DNA of 64,000 nucleotides from Candidatus Deferrimicrobium sp. (GCA_035531115.1 DATKTP010000172.1:18965-82964), one strand, 5' to 3'; shown: positions 37,156-64,000, counted from the stretch's first letter. Numbers and translations are program-made. Notes: generated from the sequence alone by a model not told the origin.

Positions 37156-38016
37156 TTGTTAATAGATGAGTTAAGTAAGAATTATTGTGATGATACAGTG
37201 ATTAGGGACATTTGGATAGTGGAAAAGGCAGGAGGTCGGTGTCTTTTTCATAGAACTTATGGGCCAATGGGTCTGGATCCTGATTTACTCTCGAGTTACT
37301 TAACTGGGATTAATACCTTTAGCGAGGCAGAACTGGGCGATACCGGTATTGAATGCATTGAAATGGGAAACATGAAATGGGTCTATATAAATTGGGAAAA
37401 TAAATTACTTTTAGTGGCAGCCGCCGATAAATTTGAGGACCCCACTGTATTGCACCATCAGTTAGACGTTGTTTGCCAGCACTTCCTAGACCATTTCAAG
37501 ATTGATAGGGACTTCTTATCTAAATGGTCGGGGAATGTAACCATGTTTTCTAAATTTGGTCCGAATATAGATGAGTTAATTAACGATTGGAAGCAAGTCT
37601 CAAAGGTTACCGATATCGCAAAAAAGATGAATCTCCTTGAGGTATATCAACAGATTTTTCATGCGTTTGCTAAAGTTGTTCCAACGATACGACCCGAAGG
37701 GCGAAAAGAATTAGCTGAGAGAATGGCGGAACTAAAAACAAGTTTTCCCCCTTACTTTGAAAAAGTTACCTATGGAAATGCTGGGTGGGATATCCTTTCA
37801 GCAGATGTAACCGATCCTCGATGCAAGGAATATAAATTAAGAGAGGAATTACAAAATTTATTAAATGCCTTTGTTTCCGAAATGAAATCTATTTTTAAAG
37901 AAGAGTTGTTTTTTGAAATTGCGAAGAAATTAGTTTATCCTAAATTATTATCCGACTGGAGCCGTATTCGAGAACTAGAAATAGATGAAGCGCTACTCCA
38001 AATTTTCTTGATTTAA
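37156..38016 (+). CDS. longin-like (SNARE-like superfamily) domain protein with helical C-terminal region
   Basis: N-term beta-alpha-beta-beta-alpha pattern IWIVEKAGGRCLF / LLSSYLTGINTF / LLLVAAADKFEDP..LHHQLDVVCQHF, comparable to longin/sigma-adaptin YLVLCEAAFPK... Confidence 0.4.
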   Translation: MLIDELSKNYCDDTVIRDIWIVEKAGGRCLFHRTYGPMGLDPDLLSSYLTGINTFSEAELGDTGIECIEMGNMKWVYINWENKLLLVAAADKFEDPTVLHHQLDVVCQHFLDHFKIDRDFLSKWSGNVTMFSKFGPNIDELINDWKQVSKVTDIAKKMNLLEVYQQIFHAFAKVVPTIRPEGRKELAERMAELKTSFPPYFEKVTYGNAGWDILSADVTDPRCKEYKLREELQNLLNAFVSEMKSIFKEELFFEIAKKLVYPKLLSDWSRIRELEIDEALLQIFLI

Positions 38017-38734: not shown

Positions 38735-39568
38735 CTAGAGTAAAATCCTATTAAAATTATCAGTCAGTAGCTCTGCAATCGGACCAATTGAAGAATGTGC
38801 CTCTGTTATTGCATAATAATAGAAGGGGACTGCGCCTTCCCCAAATTCCCCCAGAATATCTGAAATTTGAACTTTTACGCCAGGGTTGGTCATCACGACT
38901 AACTTGGGCTCCAATCCGGGCAGCGCTATGTTATTATAAAGAAGCTCCCCGTCTTGGAGAATGGATCCTTTACGTCCGATGTTACTTAAATAAATCGCAA
39001 TTTCTTCACGAGACATCCCATGCGAAAAGAGAATAGAGTTATCAAATGAAGTGATAAAGCAGGAGTGAACCTCCTCTGGAAACTTTTCCTCTATAAGGTA
39101 GTCTGCCGCTATTCGTAATTGCTCTTTTTTATTGTAAATTATATTTTCTGCAACTGCATCGTTCAATAAACCCTCAATGAATTGCCGCTCTTCATCGGAA
39201 ATATTTGGGACTTTTCCGACGCGGATCATATGTTCATAGCGAAATAATATTTTACTGTATATCCACTGTATTTTGTAATGTACCATTTGGTGAAATTGGT
39301 AGGGATCTGTAAAGCAAAGGACCATATATTCGCCAATAAAACTATAAACTCCGTCTATTCCATAAGGATCATCGGGAAATTCAGTAGGTAGGAACCTAAT
39401 ATAGGAAATTTCCTGTTTATAATTGCTGGCAAAGGTATGGAGTGCTGAAAGAAACCCCGCAATCAAAATGGGATTCCCCTCATGGAAGGCGGAAAGTTTC
39501 TCAGACCACGCATCCAGAAACAACGGAATCCCTGTCTTGCTCTGGATCGCTACGCCAAGTATTGCCAT
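38735..39568 (-). CDS. protein with two longin-like domains
   Basis: ILGVAIQSKTGIPLF / ILIAGFLSALHTFAS / YMVLCFTDPYQFHQMV; second unit FITSFDNSILFS...LVVMTNPG. Confidence 0.4.
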   Translation of the reverse strand: MAILGVAIQSKTGIPLFLDAWSEKLSAFHEGNPILIAGFLSALHTFASNYKQEISYIRFLPTEFPDDPYGIDGVYSFIGEYMVLCFTDPYQFHQMVHYKIQWIYSKILFRYEHMIRVGKVPNISDEERQFIEGLLNDAVAENIIYNKKEQLRIAADYLIEEKFPEEVHSCFITSFDNSILFSHGMSREEIAIYLSNIGRKGSILQDGELLYNNIALPGLEPKLVVMTNPGVKVQISDILGEFGEGAVPFYYYAITEAHSSIGPIAELLTDNFNRILL

Positions 39569-50971: not shown

Positions 50972-52567
50972 GTGGATTATATGAATTATGAGCAATTAAT
51001 CGATGAAGCGTTGAAAGATAACTCGATGCTACATTTATCTCTTAAAGATCTGAGAACAAGGCAAAATGCGTTGCTAGAGAGTTTCTTTAACCATCACTAT
51101 ACAAATTGTGAGAAATATCGCAAATTTTGTGAGGGGAGAGATATTAATCCAACCATGGTAAAGACTTTAGACGATATTTCAAAAATACCCCTCTTAGATT
51201 CTTTTAAAACGCTGAGAAAAACGCAATTCCGCAGTGTTAAGAGGAAAAATATTATCGCTCAATTTTCTTCGACTGGATCATCGGGAAAACCGCTTCTTTG
51301 GATTTCATTAGACCAAAAAACTATGGATTGGATGGTCCAAGGAATGGTATACCTCCTTCAAACGCATATCAAAATGAAACCAGGGGCAACGCTGATGATG
51401 CTTCCTGATGTTCCTCAATTAAAATTTGCCGCGACTTGTAAGAAAGTCATGTCGCAAATAGATAATGAGTATTTCTTCGGGCTGCGCGCTATTTTTGGAG
51501 ATGATCCAAGACCAATAATAGAACCAAATACGAAAGATATCGAAGAATTCATAAAACATCCTGCGCCTGTAAAAAATTTGATAGGTTTTCCATTTACTAT
51601 AACGCAATTATATGATTATTTAGAAGCGCATGATATCAAACTTTCGCTGGGTAAAGATGGTGTCATTGTTACGGGGGGTGGGTGGAAACCACGGCAAAAG
51701 GATAGTAAGTGGGCAAATATAACGCGTGCAGAAATGGAAAAATATATTTCAAATGCATTTGATATTCCAGTTGAGAATATCCGTGACGTATATGGATGTA
51801 CAGAAATTCTTTTAGGATATATGGAATGTTCACATAAACGGTATCACGTCCCCCCCTGGTGTTACCACGTTGCAGTCAATCCGGATGATCTCTCAATTCT
51901 AAAAAATGGTAATAGAGGTCTTGGGGTTTGTTATGATTTCGCATCTCATTCATGGCCTGCTTTCGTTTTAACAGAAGACTTTATCAAGGTATCCGATGAG
52001 CAGTGTCCTTGTGGGATTTCAGGGCAGACAATTGAATATCTTGGCAGAATTCAAGACGAAGATCCCCGGGGATGCGCTTTTAAATTTGAAGATAAATTAT
52101 TTTCAGAGGAATATTTAAGCAAAGATTCAGTGAAACCAAGTCCCCAATCAACAGATGGGCTCCTACAATTTTTGATTAAAAATAAGGCAGCGGTTTCTGG
52201 AAAATTTGTCAATGAAAATATCGATTTATTTAAAAAAGCGATAGCGATGATTAATGAAATCACCACTTTTACATCGGAAGAGCTAACTTTTGTTGAAGAA
52301 ATTGAAATCTTTAAATTTATCACGTTAGGGAAAATGCTCTGTTATAAGGAGGGAACGCCGACAATACTTTCCGAACAAGAAATCATGGAACATATGGGAT
52401 TGCCCCTTGAAGCCGTCAAAAGTATTCTCAAACTATTTGAAAAACGAGATTTTATTAAAATAGTTGAAAAAGATGGTAAGAAGCTCTATCAATATACGAA
52501 AAAAGCTGACGAATTTGGAGAAGCGTTTTATCCATTATTGGTTTGGGCAATCAAGTGGCTGAAATAG
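50972..52567 (+). CDS. adenylate-forming enzyme of PaaK/LuxE (F390-synthetase-like) family with extra C-terminal domain
   Basis: SSTGSSGKP AMP-binding-like motif near residue 100; about 150-aa C-terminal extension. Confidence 0.5.
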   Translation: MDYMNYEQLIDEALKDNSMLHLSLKDLRTRQNALLESFFNHHYTNCEKYRKFCEGRDINPTMVKTLDDISKIPLLDSFKTLRKTQFRSVKRKNIIAQFSSTGSSGKPLLWISLDQKTMDWMVQGMVYLLQTHIKMKPGATLMMLPDVPQLKFAATCKKVMSQIDNEYFFGLRAIFGDDPRPIIEPNTKDIEEFIKHPAPVKNLIGFPFTITQLYDYLEAHDIKLSLGKDGVIVTGGGWKPRQKDSKWANITRAEMEKYISNAFDIPVENIRDVYGCTEILLGYMECSHKRYHVPPWCYHVAVNPDDLSILKNGNRGLGVCYDFASHSWPAFVLTEDFIKVSDEQCPCGISGQTIEYLGRIQDEDPRGCAFKFEDKLFSEEYLSKDSVKPSPQSTDGLLQFLIKNKAAVSGKFVNENIDLFKKAIAMINEITTFTSEELTFVEEIEIFKFITLGKMLCYKEGTPTILSEQEIMEHMGLPLEAVKSILKLFEKRDFIKIVEKDGKKLYQYTKKADEFGEAFYPLLVWAIKWLK

Positions 52568-53427: not shown

Positions 53428-53721
53428 CTAGTCTGGTATTTCTCCCTCATAGTAATTGTCATAATCTTTATCATAATAATTTTCATAATATTTTTCTTTA
53501 CTTTTATCATGTTTATCTATTATTTTTTTCTCTTGATCAAGCCAAGGTTCAGCATATTTTTTCTTTATTTCCTTTTTTGGCTTCTCGTATTCAGCTTCGA
53601 TTTCACTTGCCTTAAAAGGGCCATATTTACTTTTCTTTTTCTCTTTAGGATGCTCATCCATTTTATCTGCATCCAAAGGGTCATATCTACTTTTCTTTTT
53701 CTTTTTAGGCTGCTCATCCAT
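53428..53721 (-). CDS. low-complexity K/Y/D-rich small protein with internal duplication
   Basis: MDEQPKKKKKSRYDPLDADK / MDEHPKEKKKSKYGPFKASE; about 60-bp direct DNA repeat at 53581-53720. Confidence 0.35.
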   Translation of the reverse strand: MDEQPKKKKKSRYDPLDADKMDEHPKEKKKSKYGPFKASEIEAEYEKPKKEIKKKYAEPWLDQEKKIIDKHDKSKEKYYENYYDKDYDNYYEGEIPD

Positions 53722-57454: not shown

Positions 57455-59056
57455 TTATTTGAGACTCCGTTTATAGGGCACATAATCTATGAGGCTAGGG
57501 ATCTCTTTGCTAATATTATAAATATTAGAGCCAATTTGTTGAAAAATATGAGGGATCACAGCATTTGGATCTAGCTTTGTGAAGATACGATATTTTTCCT
57601 CTTCCCGTTCTTCAATTAGAAATGTTATTCCCGGTAATTTTCCCAATGCTTCGACATGGTCTGGGTTAGGCGAATTCAATTGGACTACAATTACTTTTTC
57701 ATGTAAGGGAAGCTCCCCAATCAGTTGCGTAAGCGTTCCAAACCCTAATTGCTTCCCGTCTTCGCTCAATACAAGAATATTATGACATCGCCTCAATTCA
57801 TCAGATTTACTGTATACGAAAATAGTGCTTGATATAATATCATTGATCGCTGAAATTGCATCCCACATTCTCTTTTTTTCCGTTGTATTTAACCCATTTT
57901 CAGGTTCTACTAAAAGAATAATGCTGGGCTGCGTTATTGCAGAAAATGCAAAAATCAATCGTCTTTTTTCACCGTCAGAAAGATCTTCCATTTTAAGTTT
58001 TCGTCTATTTGAAAGTCCAATTATCGATAATAAACTATTAATACGCTCCTTCATATCCTTTTTTTGTAAATTAATTCCATATTTATATAAAATGTTCTCT
58101 AAAGTTTTATTTTTCAGATTGTCAATGGTTTTCGGCGGAAGGTCGAAATCTATCAGTTTAATTTTCTCTTGCACCTTGAGTATGTCTCTTTCCCCAAATA
58201 GATTAATTTCCCCCTCGATTTTCATTGCTTTTCCCAAGAATGCATTGAATATCGCTAAAGGAATTTCCTTATTTAAACAATATATTCCAATGATATCGCC
58301 TTTCATCGCAGAGAATGATACATTTTTCGTTACTATCTGATTCTTCTCATTAATGAGTGATAAATTCTTAATTACCAAGAGTTTCTCAATATCTTTTATC
58401 CCATGCTCTGAAGTAAAGCGCTCTTCGATTTCCTGAACAATCTGAACAATGTGTGGTGGATTATGAGTATTCCAATTTCTAAGAGTTTGTAAAGATTGGG
58501 GTGATCCAAGAATCTTTTCTAATTGTTGGTGATAAATTATCTCAGGTTTCTGAGGATAATTCTTGTAATTTATTTCAAATTCAAAATTTAATTGCGATTC
58601 TAATTGATAAAAGATTCGGATATGATATTTCTTTCCCTCTACTGTTTTTGCATTATAGATTGCCTTAACAAGATTGAATTCTTCATCTAATTCATCTAAC
58701 AGGCTTTCTTTCACTTTCAACGTAGATATTCGGGACATAATTGATTCCACGGCATGAACCGCCCGAATCTGCGGATCCACGGTTTTTTGAATGATTTGAG
58801 GAATAAATTCGTAGAGATTGGCTTGTTGCCTGATATCTCGCGGCAAATTCATAATAATAGGCCTATTAGGATAATCCTCGGGAAACAGAATTTCCATATA
58901 AAGTTTACGATTTGGTGTATGGACATAGCCTGCACAACCTTGTACCCCGTTTTTTGTAATCATCCACCATCCAAAGCGCGAAATCAACTCAAGAATTTCC
59001 TTCTGTATCGTACTATTCTTACTTGGTTGATCCATCTTATTTATCTCAATATTCAA
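57455..59056 (-). CDS. fusion of two RWD/UEV-like (UBC-fold) domains with a degenerate ABC-2-type ATPase domain
   Basis: Two units with ...LFPEDYPNRPII and ...INYKNYPQKPEII (FPxxYPxxP hallmark; no HPN/Cys); ABC part keeps LSDGEKRRL signature but Walker A is CLNKEIPLA and Walker B ILLVEPE (D->V). Confidence 0.5.
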   Translation of the reverse strand: MNIEINKMDQPSKNSTIQKEILELISRFGWWMITKNGVQGCAGYVHTPNRKLYMEILFPEDYPNRPIIMNLPRDIRQQANLYEFIPQIIQKTVDPQIRAVHAVESIMSRISTLKVKESLLDELDEEFNLVKAIYNAKTVEGKKYHIRIFYQLESQLNFEFEINYKNYPQKPEIIYHQQLEKILGSPQSLQTLRNWNTHNPPHIVQIVQEIEERFTSEHGIKDIEKLLVIKNLSLINEKNQIVTKNVSFSAMKGDIIGIYCLNKEIPLAIFNAFLGKAMKIEGEINLFGERDILKVQEKIKLIDFDLPPKTIDNLKNKTLENILYKYGINLQKKDMKERINSLLSIIGLSNRRKLKMEDLSDGEKRRLIFAFSAITQPSIILLVEPENGLNTTEKKRMWDAISAINDIISSTIFVYSKSDELRRCHNILVLSEDGKQLGFGTLTQLIGELPLHEKVIVVQLNSPNPDHVEALGKLPGITFLIEEREEEKYRIFTKLDPNAVIPHIFQQIGSNIYNISKEIPSLIDYVPYKRSLK

Positions 59057-59231
59057 TTTTTCAAATCAAAGATATAAAATCTTAAACCTGATTATATCTA
59101 TTTACCAATAAATTCATTTTTATTCATATTAAATAATAACTATCTTTAAGCATAAATTTTATTTAAATCAAAACCAAAATGGGTTATATTAACCATGATA
59201 TACATTTAATGAACGTGCATGGAGGTTTTCA

Positions 59232-60224
59232 TTGACGGCAGAGGAAAAAGTAATTGATGTCAATTCGTTGAATGTGTATTACGGTGAGAAACAAATCATC
59301 AAGAATGTCTCATTCCATTGTTATAAAGGTGAGATCATCGGGATGTTCGGGATTTCTGGTGCAGGAAAAACAACAATCATCCGCGTTCTAACCTGTCAAA
59401 TTCCAGATTATAAGGGGTTTGTGAAGTGTTTTGGATACGAACCTAAAAAAAACCCGAATAAAATTATTTCTCAAATTGGCTATGTGCCTCAATTAGAAAT
59501 GCTAAATCTGTATTATGAATTTACAGCTATGAAGAATGTAGAGATTTTTGCTTCTATGTACTTAATTCCAAAGCAGGAAGCAAATAAGAGAGTTCAACGT
59601 TACTTTGAAATGCTTGAACTTCCTAAGGATGTTTGGGATTCAAAAGCGAAATTCCTTTCAGGTGGTGAAAAAAAAAGAGTTTCTATTGCTATTGGATTAA
59701 TAAATCAACCCCACATCCTATTTCTAGATGAACCTACAACAGGGGTTGATGCATCCCGTCGATATGATATTCTTAATTACCTTAAAAAATTGAATATGGA
59801 AATGAAAACTACGATGGTTATCGTTACTCATGATTTGGAGACTGCAAATATTTGTGATCGCATCGTTTTGCTCCGAAATGGTCAGGTCGTAGATTTTGAT
59901 ACCCCTAAGAATTTGATCTCTAAATTACCATCCCAAGGAAAAATTGCTAGACTGCGAATTCCCGGGTTAACTACTGAAATCCTCGGGCGTATCGCTGAAA
60001 TAGGTGCGGTTATTTATATTCTGCGTGTCGGCAAGGACGAAATTGAATTATATATTGATAGGATTGAGGAGAATTTAGAGCATATTGTCAATAAATTATT
60101 TGAAATGGGCATTGCCATTTCATCCTTAACACGTGATACGGCAAGCTTTCGCAGATTCTTTCAAATTCGGATGCAAGATATCGCCTCAAAAGAGAAATAT
60201 AAAATTATTCAAGCGATGGATTAA
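59232..60224 (+). CDS. ABC transporter ATP-binding protein (ABC-2 type)
   Basis: GISGAGKTT, LSGGEKKRVSIA, LFLDEPTTGVD, VTHD; TTG start with GGAGG SD. Confidence 0.85.
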   Translation: MTAEEKVIDVNSLNVYYGEKQIIKNVSFHCYKGEIIGMFGISGAGKTTIIRVLTCQIPDYKGFVKCFGYEPKKNPNKIISQIGYVPQLEMLNLYYEFTAMKNVEIFASMYLIPKQEANKRVQRYFEMLELPKDVWDSKAKFLSGGEKKRVSIAIGLINQPHILFLDEPTTGVDASRRYDILNYLKKLNMEMKTTMVIVTHDLETANICDRIVLLRNGQVVDFDTPKNLISKLPSQGKIARLRIPGLTTEILGRIAEIGAVIYILRVGKDEIELYIDRIEENLEHIVNKLFEMGIAISSLTRDTASFRRFFQIRMQDIASKEKYKIIQAMD

Positions 60225-60226
60225 AG

Positions 60227-63200
60227 ATGAGTGAGAAAAAGAAGAATTATAAATTAATTATTGGGATATTAATAATTTTTATTCTTCCTTTTTCTCTTCT
60301 GGTTGGTTTAATCTTATATAAACCCCCTCACCATTTTCAAACGTCTTATATTAATTCTATTATAAGTGAAACTAATAATTATGCTCTAACTTTCCAAAAT
60401 CAAGATGGTCTGTTCGTAGAGCCGGCTATTGATGTGATATATAACACAGTAGCAACTTATTTCTATTTGAATGGCACAACCCCCTTTCTATTCTCAGACC
60501 TCAACCTTTCTTACATCTCGTATTTTGCTTTAACTCGCCAAAACCTAGATGGGAGCTTTTCTGATTTTGCAGGTTCTGGGGATATGGTTTCAACGTTCAA
60601 GGCACTTATGACCATTAATTGGACTATTCCTGAAGAATTAAGCACGAATCCTGTAAAAATGAATTTGACGTACACATTTTTAAATGAATCTCGCAATTCA
60701 GATGGAGGTTATAGCATTCGCCCTCCCTTTGAACAACCAGCTGAATTTAATTTTGATATTGGTTATGGAATTCCTCTGGAGAATTTTTCAAAGGAAATCT
60801 CTTATATGGAATATACTCATGAAGCAGTCAAAACTTTTTCTCTTCTGGGGATAACTCCTCCAAACGCTCAAACGACTACCTTTTTTATTAATACTACATG
60901 TCGGCGTATTTTCATTTTTGAGCCAAACTTTCCTGCAGGTTTTGCTGCAACAAAATATACCCTCTCCCCTGATCTTCATAGCACATATCATGGTGTCGCT
61001 GCCTTGAGCGATTTAGGGTATTCAAAGAGCGATATCGATCTTTTCGGCAACATCACTCGTTTCATTGAACTCTGCTGGAATTCCACGGATGGTGGTTTCT
61101 CGATGTATCCTGGCAATGTCTCAGATGTTACCTCCACCTATTACGGAGTCGTAGCACTCACGCTCTTGGATTATAATTTTTCAACTTCTCTTGTCATAAA
61201 CCGCACTAAAATCATTGAATTTGTTGAAAACTCCCAAAATTTAGATGGAGGTGTTGGCGCACGAAATGGTCTTCCCTCGAGTTTCCAAAGTGCGCACCAC
61301 GCTGCGGCCACTATAAAATTGTTGGAATATCTGCTCGTTCCAGCAGATGTTACACCTCTTTTTTATTGGTTAACTGATCATAAGGCGCAAAATGGCTTAT
61401 ATGGAGAAAAACTCGTTGAAGCTCAATACTGGGGAATTAGATCGGCTTTCCTTGCAAACAATGAAGGGTCTTTAAATAGAAGTTCGATTTCTGCTTTTCT
61501 AATAAATTGCCAGAATCCTAATGGAGGTTTCGGATCGGTTCCAAATTCGACTTCTACGGTTGTAGATACGTATACTGCCATAGAATCATTATATCTCCTT
61601 AATAATTTATCACATATAAATACTCTCGCTGCAACTCAGTGGTTACAGTCTTTACAGACTGAAGAAGGCGGCTTTGCTTCTATAATTGGATTGAATGCCT
61701 TCTTACAGTCCTATGCGCCGCTGTATGGTTTTATTGCTGATTTGTTATTAAATGATAGCCGTCCTTCCAGTGAGGCAACCTTTTTTGCACTTGCAGCTTT
61801 AAGTAGATTAGGTGCATCGCCATTAAATAGCACATCACTACGCTTCTGGCTTCTCTCTATTCAAAACGCAGATGGCGGATTCCCATTTGCCCTCGGTATC
61901 CGAAGCGATGCTGTTTCTTCTTTTTATGCAGTACAATCTTTAGCACTTATTCGAGACGAACCTTTTTCAACGCTCTCTTGCATTCAATTCTTGAAAGGGT
62001 GCCAAGTAAGCGATGGGGGATTTACTTTCTATCCGATGATCGGTGAATATCTTAATGTTAGCTACTTATTCATATCGTATGTGGCGGCCAGAGCGATCTA
62101 TTTGCTTGCTACCCAACCCGCCGATGTATTTGGCGCGATGGATTGGTTTTTAACCTGCAAGGATGATTACACCTCTGGTTATAGCGACACCCCCTATTTT
62201 GGATCAGACTTGCGTAACTCTCCTTATCTAATCGATATCGTTCGAGAATTGAATATTGATCAATCGTTCGATCCCACTTCTTGGATACAAACGATTCTCT
62301 GGCTCCTTATAATCGAACTTGCCGCCTTAAGTGCCTTTGGAGTGGTGAAACTCAGTCGAAAATACCGGAAAGATATTGTTGGAATGAAGCGTATACAACT
62401 GAATATTGAAGAGTATCCCGCCGTCCATGTGAAAGGACTTACCATTAAGGTAGGAAAGAAGGTCATTTTAGAAGATGTAAATATGACATTACAGCATGGT
62501 GAAGTCTTAGGAGTTGTTGGTGAAAGCGGTGCAGGAAAATCTACATTTGTCAAGAGTATTTTGGGCACAAAAGGTTCGAGTGGCGAAATATTCCTATATG
62601 GGTTTGATATCCGAAAAGAGAAAAAGCGATTAAAACCTATAATTGGTTATGTACCTCAAGATCTTAGTAAAATTTATGAAAATTTCACGGTCATGGAAAA
62701 CCTCCTGCATTTTGGCAAACAATACGGCTTGGAAGAAAAAGAAATTATTCAACGTGGTGGTAAAATACTCCAAGATCTAGGGATTTTTGATAAGCGTGAT
62801 AGTTTAGTTTCAGCGCTTTCAGGTGGACAACGACGAAGGGCGTCTATTGCAGTCGGTATGATACACCAACCAACCCTTTTTATCCTTGATGAGCCTACTT
62901 CAGGGCTGGATCCCATAATCCGCGAACAGTTATGGATTACATTGCTCAATCTTGCTGAAATCCATAATACCACTCTCATTGTGATCACCCATTATCCCGA
63001 AGAGAGTAAATTTTGTACCAAAGTAGCTATATTCGGACGTAAAAGAGGTCTTATCGATTTCGGCCCCCCTCTGGAATTAATAAACAATCTTCCCGGGTCC
63101 GGTCGCGCTCTCGATGTTAATCTAAAAGAATCTATTGCGCCAATTTCTGTTGACTTATTACCGATTCTTCAAAAAGTTCCACAAATTGAATTTTTTCTCG

Positions 63201-63364
63201 AAGAGAAGAAAGGATCCCGCTATCGTATCTTCTCGAATCTCCCTGCAAAAACGCTACGAGCGATTCTTATACAAGCCCTTGGCACACCTCTTATTGAGAT
63301 AACTCAAAGTGAAGCGACTCTTGTTGATTATTTTAGAATAAAATCGTTGGAGGTTAAGGACTAG
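60227..63364 (+). CDS. fusion protein: TM - extracytoplasmic alpha/alpha-toroid (prenyltransferase/terpene-cyclase-like) repeats - TM - ABC ATPase
   Basis: N-terminal TM; eight or more QNxDGGF-type repeats (RQNLDGSF, SRNSDGGY, NSTDGGF, SQNLDGGV, CQNPNGGF, TEEGGF, IQNADGGF, CQVSDGGF); second TM; GESGAGKST, LSGGQRRRASIA, ILDEPTSGLD. Confidence 0.7.
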   Translation: MSEKKKNYKLIIGILIIFILPFSLLVGLILYKPPHHFQTSYINSIISETNNYALTFQNQDGLFVEPAIDVIYNTVATYFYLNGTTPFLFSDLNLSYISYFALTRQNLDGSFSDFAGSGDMVSTFKALMTINWTIPEELSTNPVKMNLTYTFLNESRNSDGGYSIRPPFEQPAEFNFDIGYGIPLENFSKEISYMEYTHEAVKTFSLLGITPPNAQTTTFFINTTCRRIFIFEPNFPAGFAATKYTLSPDLHSTYHGVAALSDLGYSKSDIDLFGNITRFIELCWNSTDGGFSMYPGNVSDVTSTYYGVVALTLLDYNFSTSLVINRTKIIEFVENSQNLDGGVGARNGLPSSFQSAHHAAATIKLLEYLLVPADVTPLFYWLTDHKAQNGLYGEKLVEAQYWGIRSAFLANNEGSLNRSSISAFLINCQNPNGGFGSVPNSTSTVVDTYTAIESLYLLNNLSHINTLAATQWLQSLQTEEGGFASIIGLNAFLQSYAPLYGFIADLLLNDSRPSSEATFFALAALSRLGASPLNSTSLRFWLLSIQNADGGFPFALGIRSDAVSSFYAVQSLALIRDEPFSTLSCIQFLKGCQVSDGGFTFYPMIGEYLNVSYLFISYVAARAIYLLATQPADVFGAMDWFLTCKDDYTSGYSDTPYFGSDLRNSPYLIDIVRELNIDQSFDPTSWIQTILWLLIIELAALSAFGVVKLSRKYRKDIVGMKRIQLNIEEYPAVHVKGLTIKVGKKVILEDVNMTLQHGEVLGVVGESGAGKSTFVKSILGTKGSSGEIFLYGFDIRKEKKRLKPIIGYVPQDLSKIYENFTVMENLLHFGKQYGLEEKEIIQRGGKILQDLGIFDKRDSLVSALSGGQRRRASIAVGMIHQPTLFILDEPTSGLDPIIREQLWITLLNLAEIHNTTLIVITHYPEESKFCTKVAIFGRKRGLIDFGPPLELINNLPGSGRALDVNLKESIAPISVDLLPILQKVPQIEFFLEEKKGSRYRIFSNLPAKTLRAILIQALGTPLIEITQSEATLVDYFRIKSLEVKD

Positions 63365-64000
63365 TGGCACATATCTGGAACCTCATTATCAAAGAGTTTG
63401 GGCGCATTAAAAGTGATCGTAAGGGGTTGATTATGCTCTTCCTCTTTCCGCTCATTACAATAATTATTTTCGGATTTTCCTCAGGGGGTGGTTACGAGAT
63501 CGCTTATACTGTTGGTATTATCAATCAAGATCCTACCACTCACGGTACTAATATGGTGAATGCGTTCAATAGTGCAAATACTACTATGACTGTTGTAGCA
63601 AATTTCACCACCACAAATATCGCGGAATTCCAAGCAGCCTACGAGGAGGCATATGACCTCCTAAAACATGATAAGATCGAGATGATTTGTATCATCCCGG
63701 AAAATTTTAGCGAATCTGTTGAGAATGGCTCAAATCCCGTTATAATAATCTATATTGATGGATCTGGTTTAACTTCTCAAAATGATCTCTACTTAGCCCT
63801 CACTGAGCCTTTTCTATACTTCAAAATGATTGAGGGAAACTGGAGCGGTACTATCCTAGTTTTTCCGTATCTAGAATATGACGTTCCTTCGGGATGGAAT
63901 CAAATTTTAAACTATATGGCAGGCTTAATGATTCCTCTAATCGTACTGGCTACAAGTATGAATGTTAGCTCTCTGAGTATAGTAACAGAATTACCATTAC
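63364..64000 (+). CDS. ABC-2 family transporter permease (5' part, continues beyond window)
   Basis: GTG start overlapping upstream stop; IKEFGRIKSDRKGLIMLFLFPLITIIIFGF N-terminal pattern. Confidence 0.6.
   Translation, partial: MAHIWNLIIKEFGRIKSDRKGLIMLFLFPLITIIIFGFSSGGGYEIAYTVGIINQDPTTHGTNMVNAFNSANTTMTVVANFTTTNIAEFQAAYEEAYDLLKHDKIEMICIIPENFSESVENGSNPVIIIYIDGSGLTSQNDLYLALTEPFLYFKMIEGNWSGTILVFPYLEYDVPSGWNQILNYMAGLMIPLIVLATSMNVSSLSIVTELPL

Follow-up and report, generated by a model that had tools for sequence, protein, structure and literature searches.

Genes and domains at the locus

ORF calling on the window (the whole 64,000-nucleotide stretch of DNA that was analyzed) placed reading frames at 57455-59056 on the minus strand and at 59232-60224 and 60227-63364 on the plus strand, followed by a permease ORF that begins with a GTG at 63364 and runs off the window end. 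The genes listed in a preliminary description of this DNA are thus real and correctly placed. Its assignment of the region to an ABC-2 transporter was supported by matches to the Pfam families ABC_tran and ABC2_membrane_3, the former at an E-value of 2.4e-26 in the 330-aa protein and of 2.3e-28 in the fusion; in the 533-aa protein it reached no more than 5.2e-6. Coupling of the plus-strand genes is tight, with a 2-nt gap between the NBD-A stop codon and the fusion gene and an overlap of the fusion stop with the TMD1 GTG (TAGTG). A Shine-Dalgarno-like GGAGGT (59221-59226) lies 5 nt upstream of the TTG start of the 330-aa ATPase. The ENA call starts the 533-aa gene at ATG 59035, which gives 526 aa. 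The N-terminal 225 residues of this protein, which were not described previously, form two UBC-fold (UEV/RWD-like) domains. The features are as follows.

57455..59056, minus strand: gene for the 533-aa UEV-UEV-pseudoNBD-CTD protein (ORF; 15 orthologues with 49-64% identity; domain HMMs)
58712..59023, minus strand: U1, first non-catalytic UBC-fold (UEV/RWD-like) domain, aa 12-115
58382..58711, minus strand: U2, second UBC-fold domain, aa 116-225, with YPxKP and WNxxNPPHI motifs
57722..58372, minus strand: degenerate ABC nucleotide-binding domain (pNBD), aa 229-445 (Pfam ABC_tran, 5.2e-6; motif alignment against the two canonical NBDs)
57458..57721, minus strand: C-terminal domain (CTD) of the 533-aa protein, aa 446-533, motif F-I-E-E-R-x-G-E-K-Y-R-I-F (hhalign; HMM)
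59057..59231, no strand: AT-rich divergent intergenic region (sequence)
59232..60224, plus strand: NBD-A, canonical ABC ATPase of 330 aa with a C-terminal extension of ~95 aa (Pfam; motifs)
60227..63364, plus strand: 1045-aa fusion made of TM1, an extracellular double alpha/alpha toroid, TM2, NBD-B and CTD
60254..60322, plus strand: TM1 of the fusion, aa 10-32, after the Lys-rich MSEKKKNYK (hydropathy scan)
60329..62281, plus strand: ectodomain of the fusion, aa 35-685
62282..62356, plus strand: TM2 of the fusion, aa 686-710, followed by KLSRKYRKD (hydropathy scan)
62414..63361, plus strand: NBD-B and CTD of the fusion, aa 730-1045 (Pfam ABC_tran, 2.3e-28; motifs)
63364..64000, plus strand: 5' part (212 codons) of the TMD1 ABC-2 permease gene (translation)

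Transporter core and toroid ectodomain

The Walker A, Q-loop, signature, Walker B and H-loop motifs of NBD-A and NBD-B are intact in all seven loci compared (six assemblies and the window); in NBD-B they read GESGAGKS, GYVPQ, LSGGQ, ILDEP and ITH. Amongst PDB sequences, both NBDs are nearest to lipid transporters of the eukaryotic ABCA family, namely ABCA3, ABCA1, ABCA7 and ABCA4 for NBD-A (E 5e-50 to 1e-40) and ABCA3, ABCA7, ABCA4 and ABCA1 for NBD-B (E 4e-53 to 1e-46). The nearest relative of TMD1 is an insect ABCH-type 'ABCG23-like' transporter (5e-12). The count of two intact NBDs and one dead one given previously was borne out by the motifs in the window and its relatives. The single permease, in contrast, turned out to be an artefact of the window end, as two ABC-2 permease genes are found in the source contig (L001) and in every relative. 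In L001 the full-length TMD1 has 375 aa and matches ABC2_membrane_3 (PF12698) with 2.3e-36, and a second permease, TMD2, lies just beyond the window end (PF12698, 2.3e-24). Both have six TM helices and one extracellular loop of ~140-160 aa, which in TMD1 (~140 aa) follows TM1.

Every complete locus carries two NBD genes and two TMD genes, and since the second permease gene is present in the source contig and all relatives, we consider the core to be a heterotetramer of two NBDs and two TMDs. As read from the genes, the core is a predicted heterotetrameric ABC-2 transporter of the type V, ABCA/ABCH-like kind. The proposal of an asymmetric heterodimeric ATPase on one permease consequently did not hold, as two motif-intact NBD genes are present in every lineage examined, together with two distinct permeases. 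The layout had also been called non-standard; this does not apply to the core, which is a standard set of two NBDs and two TMDs, but it does apply to the toroid fusion and the dead-NBD protein, which are undescribed additions.

The alpha/alpha-toroid ectodomain of the prenyltransferase/terpene-cyclase class that had been proposed for the fusion was supported by a match to Pfam Prenyltrans (PF00432) with 5.7e-42. Repeats of ~48 aa that carry a Q-N-x-D-G-G-F motif occur about 11-12 times in the ectodomain, suggesting a pair of (alpha/alpha)6 barrels; the C-terminal third of its model (aa 594-694) is of low confidence. Its extracytoplasmic placement is likewise upheld, as it lies between TM helices at residues ~10-32 and 686-710, whose cytoplasmic flanks are positively charged. 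N-x-S/T sequons number 18 in the 660-aa loop, against 3 over the 338 aa of the NBD part; by itself this trend is weak (Fisher p=0.06). No description of an NBD with a membrane-anchored extracellular toroid was found in the searchable literature.

The UEV-UEV-pseudo-ATPase protein and its gene linkage

The tandem UEV/RWD-like domains of the 533-aa protein are the most unusual feature of the locus. The U2 profile matches the UEV domain of BRE/BRCC45 amongst PDB sequences (E 2e-3 to 5e-3), and distant relatives of U2 carry Pfam RWD (1.6e-10) and RING domains. U2-type domains also occur in many proteins that have no ABC part, some of them with RING fingers. Identity to solved UEV/RWD domains is 10-19% in structural alignments. 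Because neither an HPN motif nor an invariant Cys was found in U1 or U2, in the 16 orthologues or in the wider alignment, we class both domains as UEV/RWD-like and non-catalytic. UEV/RWD folds are generic protein-interaction modules, and the UEV-UEV-pseudoNBD architecture had no match in the literature searched.

The degenerate state of the third NBD was confirmed. In the window its Walker A reads GIYCLNKE and its Walker B LLVEPE, the Q-loop Gln and the H-loop His are missing, and the signature LSDGE is kept. Loss of Walker A, the Q-loop, the Walker B Asp and the H-loop His is common to the window and 15 orthologues from independent assemblies, indicating that the degeneracy is genuine and not a sequencing artefact. 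About 20 more distant clusters lack the same elements and, in addition, the signature motif, the D-loop and the Walker B Glu, whereas the clade of the window retains the signature (LS-D/E-GE-RR) and the Glu after Walker B. As the signature is lost in the wider family, the conserved function of the dead NBD cannot depend on an ATP sandwich. Conservation is strongest in the UEV domains and the CTD rather than at the dimer interface.

In BLASTP the 533-aa protein scored 1e-28 against the NBD-CTD part of the fusion and 6e-15 against the short NBD. Its CTD is homologous to that of the fusion (hhalign probability 97.4%, E 1.6e-11), and an HMM built on it matches the CTDs of the fusions in all loci. 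The C-terminal extension that had been ascribed to all three ATPases is therefore shared by the dead NBD and the fusion, while that of the 330-aa ATPase has the same length and no demonstrable relation to it (hhalign E 0.04-0.2). None of the three extensions has a Pfam match, DUF4162 included. Judged from these sequence similarities, the dead NBD and its CTD are a paralogue of the NBD-CTD part of the fusion, arisen by duplication of the toroid-bearing ATPase. Given two canonical NBD genes and two permeases, we regard the dead NBD as a fifth, extra subunit and not as half of the motor.

The gene set TMD1, TMD2, NBD, toroid-NBD and UEV-UEV-pseudoNBD, four of whose five genes lie in the window, is conserved in Asgard archaea and is joined in several lineages by a sixth membrane protein. 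A comparison with related genomes showed that its genes remain together in all 12 distinct loci whose flanks could be used (L001-L006, L008, L010, L011, L016, L018 and L019; L009 duplicates L008). In these 12 the UEV-pseudoNBD gene either adjoins the toroid-NBD gene or, in L006, is parted from the operon by one inserted MFS gene. Three loci from a genome collection (L012, L013 and L014) have the same adjacency, the L013 contig being of the same length as one that had already given matches. Because the whole neighborhood is syntenic in the window's own clade, only the more distant loci lend weight to the linkage. The flank on the other side differs in L004, and gene order and orientation differ in L008, L010, L016, L018 and L019; the names of the sources include Helarchaeota and Hodarchaeota. 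The UEV-pseudoNBD frame overlaps the neighboring fusion gene by 4-14 nt in L010, L018 and L019, and in L016 one base belongs both to its start codon and to the fusion stop codon. E2 and JAB genes are found 2-3 kb from the module in L019.

Proposed working of the module and comparison with known systems

The reading that we favor, with moderate confidence and from sequence comparisons, is that the module exports or extracts lipids or isoprenoids and is specific to Asgard archaea, with an acceptor domain outside the cell and a pseudo-ATPase adaptor in the cytoplasm. The two six-TM permeases would be driven by two different canonical ATPases, and the toroid would act beside the permease ectodomains as a non-catalytic binding or acceptor domain receiving hydrophobic cargo that the permeases extract or flip. 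An ectodomain of the prenyltransferase/terpene-cyclase toroid class makes a lipid- or isoprenoid-linked cargo, close to the polyprenyl- or lipid-linked one suggested in the preliminary description, a reasonable proposal; the fold resemblance and the very distant nearest characterized relatives suggest a lipid substrate class, with a polyprenyl-linked molecule or an archaeal lipid built on isoprenoids as the most likely cargo. Against this, the cargoes of ABC-2 systems also include drugs, peptides, polysaccharides and ions. The fifth protein, whose tie to the transporter is suggested by gene linkage and paralogy, is cytoplasmic and would dock on the motor by way of its pseudo-NBD and CTD. The UEV/RWD domains of this protein may recruit or sense a cytoplasmic partner, either a ubiquitin-like protein or the cytoplasmic domain of the sixth protein where that is present, and the fifth protein could thereby regulate or localize the transporter. 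A full transporter of two NBDs and two TMDs needs no third NBD, a point that speaks against such docking.

Alternatively, the dead NBD might be half of the motor in an asymmetric dimer with a canonical ATPase, as in TM287/288, CFTR or ABCG5/G8, or might form an alternative complex or an ATPase-sequestering decoy. In its favor, the dead NBD is paralogous to a real subunit of the motor, and with the signature and the Glu retained in the window's clade it could in principle complete one ATP site with the Walker A of a partner. We nevertheless find this unlikely, because two canonical NBD genes invariably occur with two permease genes, the distant clusters have lost the signature, D-loop and Walker B Glu, and conservation peaks away from the dimer interface. 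We give still less credence to a 533-aa protein that is unrelated to the transporter, namely a free cytoplasmic UEV/RWD scaffold (e.g. of a ubiquitin-like or ESCRT-related pathway) that simply lies beside the operon. Such a scaffold would fit the divergent transcription in the window, the synteny of the region among close relatives, the ABC-free proteins with U2-type domains and the E2 and JAB genes of L019, but the adjacency survives changed flanks, order and orientation from Helarchaeota to Hodarchaeota, the frame touches or overlaps that of the fusion in four loci, and the ABC and C-terminal parts derive from the family of the adjacent fusion gene.

The ectodomain could also be an enzyme that modifies the exported substrate, that is an extracellular prenyltransferase, terpene cyclase or (alpha/alpha)6 glycoside hydrolase. 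The fold family is largely enzymatic, and the invariant residues of the ectodomain family include D249, H357/H358, C225, C283 and C428. The prenyltransferase zinc triad is not kept, as D238/C240/H290 of RabGGTase beta correspond to D249/H251/S303 in one profile alignment, whose register is somewhat uncertain in a repeat protein; none of the listed loci has an alpha-subunit (PPTA) gene, and the DxDD motif of class II terpene cyclases (SHC/OSC) is absent from the ectodomain. We regard an enzymatic role as improbable. A more elaborate version of the favored reading is also rather doubtful: an extractor or flippase that delivers an isoprenoid membrane lipid or lipid-linked glycan onto an extracellular prenyl-binding toroid, while the pseudo-ATPase UEV/RWD protein reads a ubiquitin-like signal or docks a longin-type partner and so controls activity, assembly or turnover.

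No closer relatives of eukaryotes are known than the Asgard archaea, whose handling of membrane lipids and regulation of membrane proteins bear on eukaryogenesis. The conserved operon unites three parts typical of eukaryotes, namely ABCA-like ATPases, a prenyltransferase-beta-like domain and UEV/RWD domains. It adds two architectures, a membrane-anchored extracellular toroid on an NBD and a UEV-UEV-pseudoNBD protein, and gives structural and biochemical studies a defined set of five or six proteins to work on. If the ubiquitin-like-signal reading were true, the module would be a prokaryotic forerunner of eukaryotic ubiquitin/UEV-dependent transporter regulation, acting on an ABCA-like lipid transporter; if the core proved to be a common exporter of drugs or ions and the accessories mere decoration, the interest of the module would be modest.

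Compared with known systems, the core is closest to exporters of the ABCA family (ABCA1, ABCA3, ABCA4 and ABCA7), to prokaryotic ABC-2 (type V) exporters and to the insect ABCH 'ABCG23-like' transporter. It resembles ABCA proteins in its NBDs (PDB E 1e-40 to 4e-53), in the ~90-aa C-terminal domain after each NBD and in six-TM permeases with a large extracellular domain between TM1 and TM2. Unlike them, it is split over four polypeptides, one of its NBDs bears two additional TM helices along with a toroid ectodomain of 650 aa, and a dead-NBD subunit is added. The toroid itself is closest to the beta subunits of protein prenyltransferases (RabGGTase, GGTase-I and FTase beta; PF00432), with which it has the alpha/alpha barrel fold in common. 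It differs from them in being extracellular instead of cytoplasmic, about twice as large and probably made of two barrels, without zinc triad or alpha subunit, and fused to an ABC ATPase.

In TM287/288, CFTR, ABCG5/G8 and TAP1/2 the motor has two domains, one of which is the degenerate NBD. The Asgard protein is like these in being an NBD paralogue without Walker A/B and H-loop that keeps its signature (here in the window's clade), but it is a third, soluble protein, and the signature is lost in the wider family. U1 and U2 resemble in fold the UEV domains of TSG101/Vps23 and VPS37A, the tandem UEV of BRE/BRCC45, the ELF and double RWD of FANCL and the RWD of GCN2, whereas the Asgard pair is joined to a dead ABC domain in one protein and linked by gene neighborhood with a membrane transporter. 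LptB2FG-LptC, LolCDE and MacB are lipid and lipoprotein extractors with accessory membrane-anchored acceptor domains, and the extra TM helices of LptC pack against the permease. They serve us as a working analogy in which an ABC motor hands a hydrophobic molecule to an extracytoplasmic domain; their permeases belong to other fold families and their acceptors have other folds, and we claim no homology.

Gene content, host and transporter core

The locus reaches the end of the window, and its open reading frames were found at the positions given in the preliminary description:

57455-59056, minus strand: ORF of the 533-aa protein
59232-60224: ORF of the 330-aa ATPase
60227-63364: ORF of the 1045-aa fusion, starting two bases past the 330-aa ORF
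63364 to beyond the window end: permease ORF, whose GTG start overlaps the preceding stop (TAGTG)

The unusual TTG start of the 330-aa ATPase is supported by a Shine-Dalgarno-like GGAGGT at 59221-59226, 5 nt before it. In Pfam searches all three ATPase homologues matched ABC_tran, with E-values of 2.4e-26 (330-aa ATPase), 2.3e-28 (fusion) and 5.2e-6 (533-aa protein, a score that scarcely clears the threshold), and the fusion also matched the prenyltransferase alpha/alpha-toroid family (5.7e-42).

The window is identical to a section of a 110.7-kb ENA metagenome contig. Its proteins share 56-84% identity with proteins of Candidatus Helarchaeota MAGs and synteny links the region to a Helarchaeota Hel_GB_A contig, indicating that the host is an Asgard archaeon. 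The NCBI record identical to the fusion (P0001) carries the bacterial name of a 'Candidatus Deferrimicrob...' MAG. The contig under this name is Helarchaeota-syntenic and bears Asgard-type genes, and the label is probably a binning or labelling error.

Past the window end, the source contig (L001) completes the first permease and goes on to encode a second one of the ABC-2 type, which is likewise present in every relative examined. The single permease of the preliminary description was consequently an artefact of where the window stops. For both permeases six TM helices are predicted, and TM1 and TM2 are separated by a loop of 140-160 aa. In the two canonical ATPases, the 330-aa protein and the fusion, the ATPase motifs (Walker A, Q-loop, signature, Walker B, H-loop) are all intact, as they also are in six further assemblies. 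As the two ATPase (NBD) and two permease (TMD) genes are all different, the core is a heterotetramer of ordinary layout. Among sequences with solved structures, both NBDs come closest to eukaryotic ABCA lipid transporters (E 1e-40 to 4e-53) and the first permease to an insect transporter of ABCH type (5e-12); these matches assign the system to the ABC-2 / type V class and bear on class only, not on substrate.

Directly beyond the window end (L001 15711-19909), the two permeases are followed by a second conserved ABC system, also found in the relatives' loci L002, L005 and L006. It consists of a MacB_PCD/FtsX permease, a 262-aa protein with a weak winged-helix match, an ABC ATPase and, at its end, a very large beta-propeller protein (at least 1941 aa in L002). 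Elsewhere in the window, 53428-53721 (minus strand) encodes a very Lys-rich 97-aa protein with the internal repeat D-x-D/S-K-M-D-E-x-P-K-x-K-K-K-S-x-Y; the gene table of the source lists no family match for it, and relatives have an ORF of about that size at the same position. A LuxE-family acyl-protein synthetase homologue with an additional C-terminal region of ~150 aa (50972-52567, plus strand) adjoins an alpha/beta hydrolase gene. This hydrolase gene lies beside an OTCase gene in Helarchaeota relatives, and the LuxE gene was seen solely on the source contig.

The toroid ectodomain

Hydropathy analysis placed the TM helices of the fusion at residues 10-32 and 686-710. Lys/Arg-rich segments precede the first helix and come after the second, and the 650-residue loop therefore faces outward while the ATPase is cytoplasmic. 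Together with the prenyltransferase-family match, this topology bears out the extracytoplasmic alpha/alpha-toroid ectodomain proposed earlier. In most lineages checked, the loop carries N-glycosylation sequons at about three times the density of the ATPase part, a difference that is not significant in the window fusion alone (p=0.06). The ectodomain contains about eleven or twelve repeats of ~48 aa with the motif QNxDGGF, a number that would suffice for two six-hairpin barrels. An AlphaFold model built from 12 orthologues is confident over approximately residues 50-590 and poor further on.

The ectodomain family profile matched RabGGTase beta (E 9e-27). In this alignment the zinc ligands of the enzyme (D238/C240/H290) fall on D249/H251/S303 of the window protein, so the triad is not conserved. 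DxDD and DDxxD motifs are absent from the ectodomain, and no prenyltransferase alpha-subunit gene was found in any locus examined. On these three grounds we read the ectodomain as a putative non-catalytic binding module with a prenyltransferase-like cavity.

The 533-aa protein and its linkage to the operon

The last 305 residues of the 533-aa protein can be aligned to both canonical NBDs and are clearly nearer the fusion (BLASTP 1e-28, full length) than the 330-aa protein (6e-15). Its Walker A reads GIYCLNKE, and it lacks the Q-loop Gln, the Walker B Asp and the H-loop His; LSDGE and the Glu following Walker B are kept. The same losses occur in 15 orthologues from independent assemblies, confirming that the third ABC domain is degenerate and leading us to reject a sequencing artefact. 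For the final 88 residues, hhalign showed homology to the fusion's C-terminal domain (97%, E 1.6e-11) and detected none to the extension of the 330-aa protein; none of the three extensions matched a Pfam model. The C-terminal extension described earlier as common to all three ATPases is hence shared by the dead NBD and the fusion, and that of the 330-aa protein is not detectably related.

The 533-aa protein gave no Pfam match in its N-terminal half. Its two UBC-fold domains (U1 and U2) show no conserved Cys or HPN motif across the family and are therefore non-catalytic; an active E2 was rejected because the catalytic Cys is missing. As judged from sequence, the protein consists of two non-catalytic UBC-fold domains, a dead NBD and a C-terminal domain (UEV-pseudoNBD). 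The most divergent Helarchaeota-type orthologue (P0100, L004 2750-4675) has three UBC-fold domains (U1-U1-U2) owing to a near-exact internal duplication of the first.

Searching 1.84 billion representative proteins with an N-terminal profile identified 111 relatives. About twenty clusters among them share the four-part architecture, with all ATPase motifs degenerate, signature included; the remaining relatives have U2-like domains, single or arrayed, some with Pfam RWD and RING matches. A word-indexed protein search with a distant-member profile returned generic ABC ATPases alone and no new names, and a genome-collection scan with degenerate DNA patterns yielded four loci only, because the family is too divergent for such patterns. 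By their source names, members occur in Helarchaeota and Hodarchaeota.

In the window's clade (L001-L006, L012 and L013) the gene is divergent from the operon. The neighbourhood is mostly syntenic there, so linkage within this clade says little. In L004 the 533-aa-type gene remains next to the operon even though the other flank is unrelated, and in L006 the two are separated by an inserted MFS gene. A single co-directional operon, TMD1-TMD2-NBD-toroidNBD-UEVpseudoNBD, is found in L008 (a second Helarchaeota lineage), L010, L016, L018 (Hodarchaeota) and L019, with unrelated flanks, and the contig-truncated L011 and L014 preserve the order of the toroidNBD-UEVpseudoNBD pair. There are overlaps of 4-14 nt between reading frames in L010, L018 and L019, and in L016 start and stop have one base in common. 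In all, synteny analysis of related genomes showed that the toroid-NBD adjoins the UEV-pseudoNBD in 12 out of 12 distinct loci with usable flanks, counting L006, where one inserted gene separates the latter from the operon. The genome-collection loci L012-L014 agree, although the contig of L013 is as long as that of hits already found. This conserved linkage, together with the paralogy, suggests that the 533-aa protein, as a fifth subunit, is part of the transporter.

A sixth gene follows the module in L010, L011, L016, L018 and L019. Its product (268-287 aa) combines about four TM helices with a soluble domain at the N-terminus; it gave no Pfam match, and a profile run against PDB sequences gave nothing significant. 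The N-terminus may be longin-like, given its weak similarity to a window ORF with a sub-threshold Fuz_longin_1 hit. The window encodes two ~280-aa proteins with longin-like N-terminal domains (37156-38016, plus strand, and 38735-39568, minus strand). The former has Fuz_longin_1 at E 4.6e-4, under the Pfam cut-off, and is weakly similar to the N-terminus of the sixth gene product in other Asgard lineages (E 4.5e-7).

A working model and its alternatives

From the parts observed, their topology and motif states, and the conserved linkage, we favour, with some reserve, a transporter with a toroid acceptor and a docked dead-NBD protein. The two canonical ATPases would drive the two permeases, and the toroid, which its two TM helices would keep close to the permease ectodomains, would accept or present a hydrophobic cargo. 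We tentatively suggest an isoprenoid lipid or polyprenyl-linked compound, which fits the toroid fold and the ABCA-like relatives. ABCA4 transports inward, so likeness to ABCA proteins does not fix the direction of transport. The dead-NBD protein may dock through its pseudo-NBD or C-terminal domain, its UEV/RWD domains binding a cytoplasmic partner.

The preliminary description had made the dead NBD one half of an asymmetric motor. We consider this role unlikely in view of the gene count, two canonical NBDs for two permeases, and of the family-wide loss of the signature motif. Within the Helarchaeota clade the signature survives, and a decoy or inhibitory pairing of the dead NBD is possible there. 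Chance adjacency of the 533-aa gene to the operon is disfavoured by the conserved linkage, just as the missing catalytic motifs make an enzymatic ectodomain less likely and led us to reject a catalytic prenyltransferase or cyclase. Any ubiquitin link of the module seems improbable to us.

In one distant lineage, genes for an E2 (UQ_con 1.6e-25) and a JAB-domain protein are found 2-3 kb upstream of the module (L019 516-1876); in another (L010 8700-11077), genes for a VWA-RING protein and for a membrane protein of the VTT/DedA family come directly downstream. These neighbours, each seen only once, suggest a ubiquitin-like or lipid context.

We found no description of the module in the searchable literature, including surveys of Asgard transporters and of Asgard ESCRT/UEV proteins, which is limited evidence of absence. 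The ABC-2 transporter class is already well known; it is the toroid and UEV-pseudoNBD accessories, conserved as a module in Asgard archaea, that we did not find in that literature.
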